Virus record (IMG/VR): IMGVR_UViG_3300043185_000099
Span: 64,001-128,000 of that record
DNA length: 64,000 nt
Source of the DNA: a virus
Strand: one strand, 5' to 3'
Shown here: one piece after another, positions 59,389-61,209 of the stretch
How positions within the stretch are numbered: position 1 is the stretch's first letter
Layout: every line of letters begins with the position of its first letter
Notes under the pieces: model-generated
What the model was told of the DNA's origin: nothing
The model's input: the letters and a program-made list of their open reading frames with translations, nothing else
Database searches by the model: none
Position numbers and translations under genes: made by a program

Positions 59389-59403
59389 ATAGGCTACCCA
59401 CCG
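59389..59403 (-). promoter_or_regulatory. Candidate late-promoter motif CGGT-N7-CTAT at the head of the structural region
   Basis: Minus strand CGGT GGGTAGC CTAT. The 10-mer CGGTGGGTAG is directly repeated 22 nt downstream (plus strand 59372-59381). Confidence 0.55.
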
Positions 59404-59427
59404 AGCTAGTTCGGCATCGGCAGCCCG

Positions 59428-61209
59428 TCATCTCCGACGCCTCCACCAACGCAAAGCATGTGTACCCGGGTCCGAAACGGGCTTGGATCGGTCGCAGGAC
59501 GATCCAAGCCCGTTCACGGGTCCGAGGGCGTCACTCAGGATCGGCACCAGCGATCCTGAGTTCGCCGCCTCGCCACCGCCGCCCGGGCCTCCGCACGCGC
59601 CCATGTCGAGAAGGTCCAGCACGCCGAGCCGCGTGTGGGCGACGTAGTACGGCCGGCCGATGTCCGGGTACTGCGGCTCGAGCTTGACCTCGCCGAGCAG
59701 CTTCCGCAGCGCCAGCGCGGACGGGGTCGCGTGGTCCTCCAGCAGCCCGCGGAGGTTTCGCAGGCGGTCCTCCACCCACTCGATGGGCGGCGCCCGGAAC
59801 ACGCTCTCGTGGACCGCGCGCATGCTAGCGATCTCGACCTTCAGCTCCTCGACACGGGTCTCGCTCGCCTGGATCGCCTTGGCGAGCGCGAGGCTGCCGC
59901 GTCCCTCTGCGACGAACTCCACGAAGTTCGAGAGACGTCGTTCCTCGGCTCCGAGATCGGCCTCCTTGAGCCGCAGCTTCTCCGGTCCATCACCGCACTG
60001 TTTGCGCACCTCCTCCTCCACCTTGCGAAGGACGGCGTGGACCGCATGCGGCGTCGAGATCGTCTCCTGGACCGCGGCGACGACGACGCGCTCCAGCAGC
60101 TTCCTCTGGACGCGCACCGCGTTGGAGCATCCGTGGCGCTGACGCATGCGGCATCCGTAGTAGCCGCCCTTCTTCCCGGCGACCAGACCGATGCCGGCCC
60201 CGCACACGCCACACTGGAGCGTTCCGGAGAACAGGTGAGTCGGGTAGTGCTCCTGCCGAGTGCCCTGCGCCTTCGAGAAGCCGCGCTGTCCCGGCGCACC
60301 GGGCCACGTCTTGTGGCGCTCGGCGCGAAGGCGCTGCACGCTGTCCCAGAGAGCTTGCGGCACGATGCGGAGCGCCTCGTCCTCGACGGTGATCCACTCG
60401 GACGTCGCCTTGGCCGCGTGACGTTTCCTGCCGCTCCGCGGGTCTCGGCGCGTCTCCGTCTTGTTCCACGTCCACTTCCCGATGTACTTCTCGCGGCCGA
60501 GGATGCGGGTCACCGTGGACGGCGACCATCCCGAGCTGGTGCGGTAGCGGCCGGGCGTCTTGGTCTCGTTGAGCTTGCGGCAGATGCCCGGCAAGCCGTG
60601 GCCGTTCACGTACATCGTGAAGATCTGCAGGACCACCGCGGCCTCGCGGGCATCGATCTCCATCCGATATCCGTCCGGACGCGGACGCCCCTTCTTGTCC
60701 ACCCTCGTGTCGCCCACGGGGACGGAGCGGTAGCCGAAGGTAGCCTCGCCGCAGAAGTAGCCGCGCTCCTTCTGCCCGCGCTGGCCTCGCAGGGTCTTCT
60801 GCTTGAGATCCCGCAGCGCAAGCTCGTTGAAGATGCCGCGGATCTGGATGCCGAGCGTCGCCTCGGCGTTCTGCGTGTCGAGCCCGTCGGCGACGGAGAC
60901 GACGCGGACGCCCGCGAACTCCAGCTCGGCCATGAGCGTGAGCATGAGGTAGTTGTCTCGGGCGAGGCGGCTAAGGTCGTCGACGAGCACGACCTCGAAC
61001 TGCCGAGCGTGCGCGGCGGCCTTGAGCCTCTCCAGGCCCGGGCGGTCCCACTGCGCCCCGGACCGCGCCTCGTCCGAGTAGACGTGTTCCTCCAGGACGT
61101 TGAACTCGCGCTGCGCCGCGAGGCGACGGCACGACGCGACCTGGTCCGTGATGCTCTCCGGGCGCTGGTTGTCCGAGCTGTAGCGGGCGTAGACGGCGGC
61201 TCTGATCAT
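59428..61209 (-). CDS. Large serine recombinase (integrase), 593 aa (start revised to ATG 61209)
   Basis: MIRAAVYARYSS catalytic motif, RPGL, VDDLSRLAR, FGY recombinase domain, LFSGTLQCGVCG...YYGC...C zinc ribbon, coiled coil. AGGAG Shine-Dalgarno. Confidence 0.95.
   Translation of the reverse strand: MIRAAVYARYSSDNQRPESITDQVASCRRLAAQREFNVLEEHVYSDEARSGAQWDRPGLERLKAAAHARQFEVVLVDDLSRLARDNYLMLTLMAELEFAGVRVVSVADGLDTQNAEATLGIQIRGIFNELALRDLKQKTLRGQRGQKERGYFCGEATFGYRSVPVGDTRVDKKGRPRPDGYRMEIDAREAAVVLQIFTMYVNGHGLPGICRKLNETKTPGRYRTSSGWSPSTVTRILGREKYIGKWTWNKTETRRDPRSGRKRHAAKATSEWITVEDEALRIVPQALWDSVQRLRAERHKTWPGAPGQRGFSKAQGTRQEHYPTHLFSGTLQCGVCGAGIGLVAGKKGGYYGCRMRQRHGCSNAVRVQRKLLERVVVAAVQETISTPHAVHAVLRKVEEEVRKQCGDGPEKLRLKEADLGAEERRLSNFVEFVAEGRGSLALAKAIQASETRVEELKVEIASMRAVHESVFRAPPIEWVEDRLRNLRGLLEDHATPSALALRKLLGEVKLEPQYPDIGRPYYVAHTRLGVLDLLDMGACGGPGGGGEAANSGSLVPILSDALGPVNGLGSSCDRSKPVSDPGTHALRWWRRRR
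59431..59448 (+). other. Putative att site: tmRNA (ssrA) 3'-end-like sequence overlapping the recombinase 3' end
   Basis: TCTCCGACGCCTCCACCA resembles the conserved ssrA terminus (...TCCCGCCGCCTCCACCA). The recombinase reads across it as LRWWRRRR-stop. No upstream tmRNA body is present. Confidence 0.62.

Follow-up and report, generated by a model that had tools for sequence, protein, structure and literature searches.

Reference work credits the targeting of tRNA and transfer-messenger RNA (tmRNA) genes, together referred to as tDNAs, to tyrosine integrases, and the Islander paper states that serine recombinases are not known to target tDNAs (PMC4383910). The sole serine precedent is DsiB, the ssrA-specific serine integrase of the Dehalococcoides ssrA islands, whose gene overlaps attL and the 3' end of the tmRNA gene ssrA and has its stop codon outside the island (PMC3146451). 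These islands insert in the T-loop and generate a direct repeat of 20 bp; they also carry a small second serine recombinase (DsiA) and an odd tRNA-like gene within the integration module (PMC3146451). Whether the DsiB protein differs between the circular and integrated forms was a question asked by McMurdie et al. in 2011 (PMC3146451). In a literature search, we found no paper describing the clade of tDNA-targeting serine integrases considered below. This work presents one large serine integrase and the attachment (att) site at the end of its gene, found in a 64,000-nucleotide stretch of viral DNA (here, the window) that comprises bases 64001-128000 of the linear, 151,955-bp IMG/VR contig IMGVR_UViG_3300043185_000099. 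As judged from its sequence and from that of its relatives, the window probably holds a non-integrated, competent attP-type site, a reading to which we assign a probability of roughly 0.6.

An att-type site within the end of the integrase gene

The integrase is recognized by a PHROG integrase profile (292 bits) and comprises a Resolvase domain (PF00239, 99.6 bits, residues 4-150), a Recombinase domain (PF07508, 84.6 bits), and a Zn_ribbon_recom domain (PF13408, 35.3 bits). Across 21 aligned sequences, neither the YARYSS motif nor the conserved R/D residues vary, and all invariant residues are retained by the window protein; an intact open reading frame (ORF) with this full set argues for a functional enzyme. 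The single PF00239 match in the 152-kb contig leaves no second serine recombinase there, and no tyrosine integrase was found in it.

Translation of the ORF ends in ...THALRWWRRRR-stop, the last ~60 codons reading through two hairpins and the att site (Table 1). A sequence-only reading of the window had noticed that these final codons are antisense to an ssrA terminus, and the translation agrees: they lie opposite CTCCGACGCCTCCACCA at 59432-59448 (+), a sequence that occurs once in the contig. The 15-nt tmRNA match consists of the 8 inner nucleotides of the left arm of the site plus the core TCCACCA. That the match exceeds chance expectation was borne out in two ways. First, the family-derived pattern CCGNCGNCTCCACCANNGCAAAG has one match in the window, with 0 mismatches, where 0.01 would be expected. 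Second, a weight matrix built from the half-sites of 40 distinct relatives and scanned along both strands (~304,000 positions) ranks 59442-59468 first in the contig, at 17.0 bits, compared to 11.3 bits for the runner-up and a background mean of -45.7 (standard deviation of 11.8). Within this P' arm, the inner part is conserved in the family, while the outer hexamer reads GTGTAC versus TCGAAC in the family. The outer part of the left arm corresponds neither to P' in mirror image nor to a T-loop. Searches with Rfam and ARAGORN returned no tmRNA or tRNA body 5' of the site, in the window or in the contig, in line with the earlier claim that none precedes it; the attP state predicts precisely this.

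Table 1. Features of the integrase locus (window coordinates).
Feature	Position	Strand	Basis or remark
tmRNA/tRNA-Ala-like 3' end (T-stem 3' strand, acceptor 3' strand, ACCA)	59434..59448	+	Family alignment, pattern match
P' half-site, integrase side, TCCACCAACGCAAAGCATGTGTACCCG	59442..59468	+	Top weight-matrix score in contig
Left arm of site; inner 8 nt (59434-59441) tmRNA-like	59406..59441	+	Weight-matrix scoring
Hairpin 1, perfect 15-bp stem, 9-nt loop, 28 nt past CCA end	59476..59514	.	Fold z = -6.0
Hairpin 2, 10-bp stem, within integrase tail	59534..59560	.	Fold; conserved in L141
Large serine recombinase (integrase), intact, 593 aa	59428..61209	-	Pfam, PHROG, invariant residues
Small ORF, 88 aa, overlaps integrase start	61206..61472	-	No Pfam family
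tRNA gene, 8-nt anticodon loop CUCUACAC, inside module	61820..61895	-	ARAGORN; Rfam, 60.2 bits
Imperfect ~33-bp direct repeat, left copy (TACCCAC-N-ATAGGCT...)	59373..59405	+	
AdoMet_dc S-adenosylmethionine (SAM) decarboxylase, separate cassette beside integrase module	58954-59379	-	68 bits
Indel 1, SAM-decarboxylase cassette, ~1.2 kb	58129-59337		
Indel 2, island-like module, 6.6 kb	59406-65965 (window-equivalent; contig 123406-129965)		

We place the likely crossover at about 59442|59443 (U70|C71), because the dyad centre of the attP in one relative (L076) and the start of identity to an integrated counterpart (L141), both described below, agree on this position. The junction thereby moves from 59430-59435, where the sequence-only reading had put it. 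The inverted repeat CGTC-atctcc-GACG that it reported does lie at 59426-59439, whereas a 4-bp repeat is not significant by itself. When this repeat and other centres were searched for a surrounding dyad, only a 7-nt inverted repeat (59422-59428 and 59477-59483) was retrieved, and it misfits the geometry of the family.

Hairpin 1 is translated as a piece of the integrase tail, and relatives have a hairpin at the equivalent place. It would probably serve as a replacement terminator, both for a restored tmRNA gene and for the integrase gene; no T-tract terminator was detected at the window hairpins by a simple terminator scan. The hairpin-1 arm, GATCCAAGCCCGT (59476-59490 and 59500-59514), has a third, imperfect copy, CATCGGCAGCCCGT, in the left arm of the att site (59422-59428); this copy might be fortuitous or might act as an accessory binding site.

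Relatives at the 3' ends of tmRNA and tRNA genes

Hundreds of homologs of the integrase were retrieved, typically 571 aa in length, with 55-62% identity over 90-100% of their length and E values down to 1e-220. In alignment, about 120 of them share the C-terminus ...GGSNSLRWWRRRESNPRP......LRA, whose codons are antisense to GGGTTCGATTCCCGCCGCCTCCACCA, comprising a T-arm, an acceptor stem, and CCA. On long contigs, three homologs converge with a full tmRNA gene, overlapping it by ~66 nt, beside smpB and a gene for an RNB-domain exoribonuclease (RNase R-like). The genomic loci of 80 relatives were inspected; these represent at least 8 phyla and comprise Solirubrobacterales and other Actinomycetota as well as Acidobacteriota, Gemmatimonadota, Myxococcota, Methylomirabilota, Dormibacterota, Desulfobacterota, and Arenicellales. 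A tmRNA gene lies exactly at the integrase 3' end in 38-43 of the 80, and a tRNA gene (Ala, Met, Glu, Ser, or Val) in ~18, such that the ssrA target proposed for the window integrase is one that its homologs share. A quick tree places the window integrase on a long branch next to a Solirubrobacterales tmRNA-targeting clade, with weak support; one row label in that tree is wrong, as locus L026 has a tmRNA gene at its site.

Anchored on its outer hexamer, the element-side arm aligns almost without gaps as TCCAC-C-nnn-GCAAAGAATTCGAACCGC, and the window agrees with the consensus of this anchored alignment, ...TCCACCnnnGCAAAGAATTCGAACC. The conserved site, TCCACCnnnGCAAAG..., is traversed by the 3' end of the integrase gene, a feature also present in the window, and the outer GAATTCGAACC mirrors the T-loop region of the target, GGTTCGAaTC. 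Relative L076 has a complete and perfectly dyad-symmetric attP, GGTTCGAATTCTTTGCGA-CGGTGT|CCACCA-TCGCAAAGAATTCGAACC, whose symmetry about T|CC puts the dyad centre at U70|C71. From this centre, the T-loop motif starts at 18 nt in the target arm and at 23 nt in the element arms. In 2013, Rutherford and Van Duyne reportedly placed the outer motif of serine-integrase attP sites 5 bp further out than that of attB, and the distances of 18 and 23 nt in the clade amount to this 5-bp offset. As read from these sites, the element supplies only CCACCA and downstream DNA to the RNA gene. In most relatives, the downstream DNA consists of a hairpin followed by T-rich sequence, a likely replacement terminator for the tmRNA gene. 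At the other non-tDNA junctions (L122, L123, L041, L017, and L046), the inner left arms are target-like, and a clear P arm is visible in some only. To map attR in 5 genomes, the surroundings of integrated relatives were searched for a directly repeated 15-mer, which yielded only chance GC-rich matches in the wrong place or orientation.

In Arenicellales, single chromosomes carry several paralogous copies of the integrase clade (loci L045, L047, L048, L050, L052-L055, L058-L061, L064, and L072), each at a different tDNA (tmRNA, tRNA-Met, -Glu, or -Ala). Target type clusters on the tree among these paralogs, which look like a natural series of specificity switches.

The terminus that the sequence-only reading expected of a host ssrA does exist, as a tmRNA with the exact 15-nt terminus CCGACGCCTCCACCA was found. 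Among 401 sampled Actinomycetota genomes, one has a tmRNA ending exactly in ...CCCGACGCCTCCACCA; the Actinomycetota match to the terminus pattern at L125 was rejected as a coding-region coincidence. To look for an integrated form of the lineage, Joint Genome Institute (JGI) metagenome contigs were scanned for the exact pattern of the window's variant arm, which gave one record, L141. Its genuine tmRNA gene (ARAGORN, with tag ANSNDYGFAAVA and terminus CCAGCGTCTCCACCA) runs ...GGGTTCGACTCCCAGCGTCTCCACCA directly into ACGCAAAGCATGTGTACCCGG. Beyond the tmRNA gene, the contig continues with the window's variant P' arm, the two hairpins, and the final 104 codons of the integrase gene, with 90% nucleotide and 87.5% amino acid identity to window positions 59432-59752. 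Identity begins at CTCCACCA (59441-59448). The integrase tail of L141 reads ...THALRWWRRWESNPGP..., i.e., WWRRWESNP, and relatives have WWRRRESNPRP; the earlier prediction that integration would change the C-terminus to about WWRRRESNP is borne out by these tails. The presence of the variant arm in L141 marks this arm as a working trait of the lineage and not as decay.

The L141 copy is a relic, with the integrase stopping at codon 488, where it abuts the terminal repeat of a clustered regularly interspaced short palindromic repeat (CRISPR) array. Two different arrays (L141:1682-3490 and L141:4509-6699, with ~25 and 30 repeats) flank this ssrA gene, and cas genes of the GSU0053/GSU0054/Cas3 kind follow the other array; the arrays and cas genes identify the contig as bacterial. 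Over its full length, none of the 52 spacers from both arrays matches the 152-kb contig or loci of related phages (best match, 22/38 nt). L141 does not identify the integrated element.

These comparisons also bear on whether a high-GC ORF could simply happen to be open across a sequence ending in TCCACCA. By our estimate, TCCACCA alone would be expected several times per 64 kb; the match, however, extends to a family-specific half-site and to an integrated counterpart. With homolog tails, half-site, and integrated counterpart all matching, coincidence is scarcely credible.

The mechanism that we propose is as follows. Integrases of this widespread clade insert their element at the extreme 3' end of tmRNA genes (in some subclades, tRNA genes), with the probable crossover in the acceptor stem at about U70|C71. 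The att site overlaps the end of the integrase gene, the element provides CCACCA and a new downstream hairpin, and the integrase-side half-site mirrors the target T-loop sequence GGTTCGA. If the window site is competent, recombination by the integrase between it and a host ssrA with the terminus ...CCGACGCCTCCACCA would integrate the whole circular replicon carrying the site, i.e., the whole phage. In the process, the integrase tail would swap from WWRRRR-stop to WWRR(R/W)ESNP....

An accessory module in a huge-phage contig

The sequence-only reading placed the integrase directly against a jumbo-type structural region. A baseplate-J/wedge protein is indeed encoded at 17525-21067, as the sole recognizable structural gene; the immediate left neighbours of the site, however, are genes for a SAM decarboxylase, a DUF7717/DUF7007 protein, and a NUDIX/M78-like protein. 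Contigs with homologs of the 1180-aa baseplate-J protein reach lengths of 618 and 648 kb. Giant ORFs at 26165-37087 (-) and next to it form a row and encode proteins of 3640, 1832, 1786, 1180, 1147, and 1064 aa, without Pfam or PHROGs matches except for the baseplate-J domain of the 1180-aa protein. At L005:14199-16322 (-), window-equivalent 78199-80322, lies a gene for an actin-like protein of the 'Volactin' family (217 bits), which is split by a LAGLIDADG-containing intein. Nearby, next to the gene for a 2480-aa protein, lies one for a GIY-YIG/NUMOD3 homing endonuclease.

The contig is collinear with that of a related phage, L121 (83 kb; CheckV completeness, 16%), on both sides of the integrase. 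Shared genes on the right encode the 2480-aa protein (92% amino acid identity), a 532-aa protein (84%), and a GIY-YIG endonuclease; those on the left encode proteins of 819, 106, 716, and 263 aa, with up to 96% identity. Window positions 58129-66079 are absent from L121, and this gap resolves into two adjacent indels (Table 1) parted by ~70 bp (59338-59405) that L121 has, with L121 homology to the window stopping at 59405. The SAM-decarboxylase gene in the first indel sits behind the leader sequence that precedes the 819-aa gene in L121. The second indel, the 6.6-kb module carrying the integrase, has a GC content of 0.673, compared to 0.605 in flanking phage DNA. It is bracketed by the TACCCAC-N-ATAGGCT repeat, whose second and only other contig copy lies at window-equivalent 65966-65998, while L121 has one copy. 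The integrase is therefore an accessory acquisition and not a core trait of the phage lineage, as shown by L121 synteny without the module. Insertion of the module by the integrase itself at a phage pseudo-site was considered and rejected, as the phage repeat unit is still complete at the right boundary and an attR-like site is lacking there.

The same synteny decides against the second model of the sequence-only reading, in which an integrated giant prophage and another island form a tandem array at ssrA and meet at the site. While the junction within an array of serine-integrase elements would presumably resemble attP locally, L121 homologs in the same order flank the module on both sides (2480 and 532 aa on the right; 819, 106, and 263 aa on the left), almost all genes of the 151,955-bp contig are on one strand, and the contig holds neither a tmRNA gene nor a second fragment of one. 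The junction also recurs in two further assemblies, a 35-kb contig obtained in a separate sequencing run and another JGI sample (100% identical over 3,053 bp), which excludes an assembly chimera. The array model is refuted; the first model, the attP form, fits best, with a non-integrated half-site in the window and an attL of the lineage in L141.

Other module genes are of kinds found on islands. Bacterial ssrA islands contain homologs of two of the module ORFs. The 88-aa ORF at the integrase start is homologous, over its C-terminal ~45 aa, to a small ORF directly upstream of the integrase gene in 17 relatives, and it is a candidate directionality or regulatory factor. ARAGORN assigns the module tRNA, which is well formed, the anticodon 'ctac'; this tRNA could be amber-suppressor-like or a four-base reader. 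Candidates for a repressor or switch are a divergent 85-aa gene with a weak precomputed match to the helix-turn-helix (HTH) family HTH_31, taken from the gene list of an independent assembly, and a 128-aa ORF with sub-threshold HTH matches and homologs in bacterial islands.

Such gene content, together with the GC step and absence from L121, would suit a module that uses the phage as a vehicle only, exiting it and integrating alone into ssrA while the phage remains lytic. Relatives of the integrase in non-phage islands with cargo such as helicases, and the lack of viral relatives in IMG/VR, point the same way. Against this, the att site is internal to phage DNA and in attP configuration, so the integrase would move the whole replicon, and solo release would need recombination between the ~33-bp, roughly 70%-identical repeats, for which no mechanism is evident. 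An autonomous island of this kind seems rather improbable to us.

A further alternative, unlikely but to be reckoned with, is that the module was captured from a bacterial chromosome as a dead-end passenger. The site would then be a truncated attL, made up of 15 nt of donor tmRNA plus the P' arm; without a P arm, the integrase could not integrate the phage, and its gene would be intact but purposeless or decaying. This would account for the abrupt change at 59433/59434 from a perfect 15-nt tmRNA-like stretch to unrelated sequence. It would also suit a left arm that is nearer B-type than P-type and holds no P-type half-site, as well as the failure of the weight matrix to find an attR-like site at the other end of the module, the long integrase branch, and the lack of the module in L121. 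The attP-like sites of relatives L123 and L041, however, likewise have target-like inner left arms, and the 28 nt between the phage repeat and the tmRNA-like core (59406-59433) leave room for a divergent P arm. Moreover, no invariant residue has been lost from the 593-codon ORF despite ~40% divergence, which speaks for continued selection, and the sequence is identical in three assemblies. Readings beyond these two and a competent attP-type site are, even jointly, very improbable.

Several observations weigh against a competent attP-type site. In the right arm, the outer hexamer differs from the near-invariant TCGAAC at 3/6 positions, though L141 has the same variant. In the left arm, there is no mirror-image P-type half-site, with inverted weight-matrix scores of -28 to -73. 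The branch of the integrase is long (1.0, versus a median of 0.15, in the quick tree). At 90% identity, its protein cluster contains a single sequence; the three contigs that carry it all show the free form, so a full-length variant in the integrated form is missing from the record. L121 lacks an integrase at this locus and elsewhere in its 83 kb, and an IMG/VR scan found no relatives of the integrase in other viral contigs. The sole integrated copy found, in L141, is a truncated relic without phage genes. Finally, the contig is a fragment (CheckV completeness of 29%, implying a genome of ~0.5 Mb).

The sequence-only reading went further in stating that either of its models implies lysogeny of a giant phage. 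As stated, this is not supported, given that the higher-GC module is missing from the closest relative, that the left arm is not recognizable as a P-type half-site, and that neither the protein cluster nor the metagenome scan yielded the phage in integrated form. For the baseplate protein, the contigs of the 120 closest relatives do not exceed 0.65 Mb in any case, and IMG/VR contigs of related huge phages are all ≤83 kb. Lysogeny of the ~0.5-Mb phage is thus unproven. We regard it as a tentative idea, more doubtful than not, that a roughly half-megabase phage is temperate through a module taken from bacterial islands that docks on the universally conserved 3' end of the host ssrA, with integration rewriting the integrase C-terminus as a readout of the integrated or free state. 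The broader part of this idea, a phylum-spanning serine-integrase family that reads the T-arm of tRNA-like genes as a half-site, is held just as tentatively.

Significance and comparison with described integration systems

The clade data show serine integrases in at least 8 phyla that use tmRNA and several tRNA genes, with a readable site architecture in which the T-loop motif is mirrored in the element arm at a 5-bp attB/attP offset. As the tmRNA target is present in virtually every bacterium, enzymes of the clade would be attractive as broad-host integration tools. An intact integrase and an attP configuration in a phage of ~0.5 Mb make huge-phage lysogeny directly testable, and the attL relic in L141 offers a concrete target sequence and a candidate host lineage.

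Compared by description, the clade resembles DsiB in that a large serine recombinase gene overlaps the 3' end of ssrA, and the window module likewise contains an odd tRNA. In contrast to the Dehalococcoides islands, no DsiA-type partner is present; the contig has one serine recombinase, and the ORF upstream of it has no family match. Rather than a 20-bp repeat and T-loop insertion, we observe a dyad centre at U70|C71 and no 15-mer repeat near integrated relatives. Furthermore, whereas DsiB is confined to Dehalococcoides, members of the clade occur in at least 8 phyla and, besides tmRNA genes, target those for tRNA-Ala, -Met, -Glu, -Ser, and -Val.

With the phage integrases phiC31, Bxb1, A118/LI, and TP901-1, the clade has in common the Resolvase/Recombinase/zinc-ribbon architecture and, as seen complete in L076, an att site of ~48 bp with inverted half-sites around a central dinucleotide. 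Those enzymes target protein-coding or intergenic sites and need no rebuilding of the target, whereas the clade uses tDNA 3' ends, rebuilds CCACCA and probably a terminator, and runs its own coding sequence through the site. An attP within a coding sequence, with integration altering the C-terminus of a phage protein, was reportedly described by Broussard et al. in 2013 for integration-dependent immunity in mycobacteriophages. There, the gene is that of the repressor and the enzyme is a tyrosine integrase; here, the altered sequence is the integrase's own, probably disordered, tail. Finally, islands and prophages with tyrosine integrases use the same targets, and a copy of the 3' end likewise keeps the gene whole, while the recombinase superfamily differs (Williams 2002; Islander, PMC4383910).

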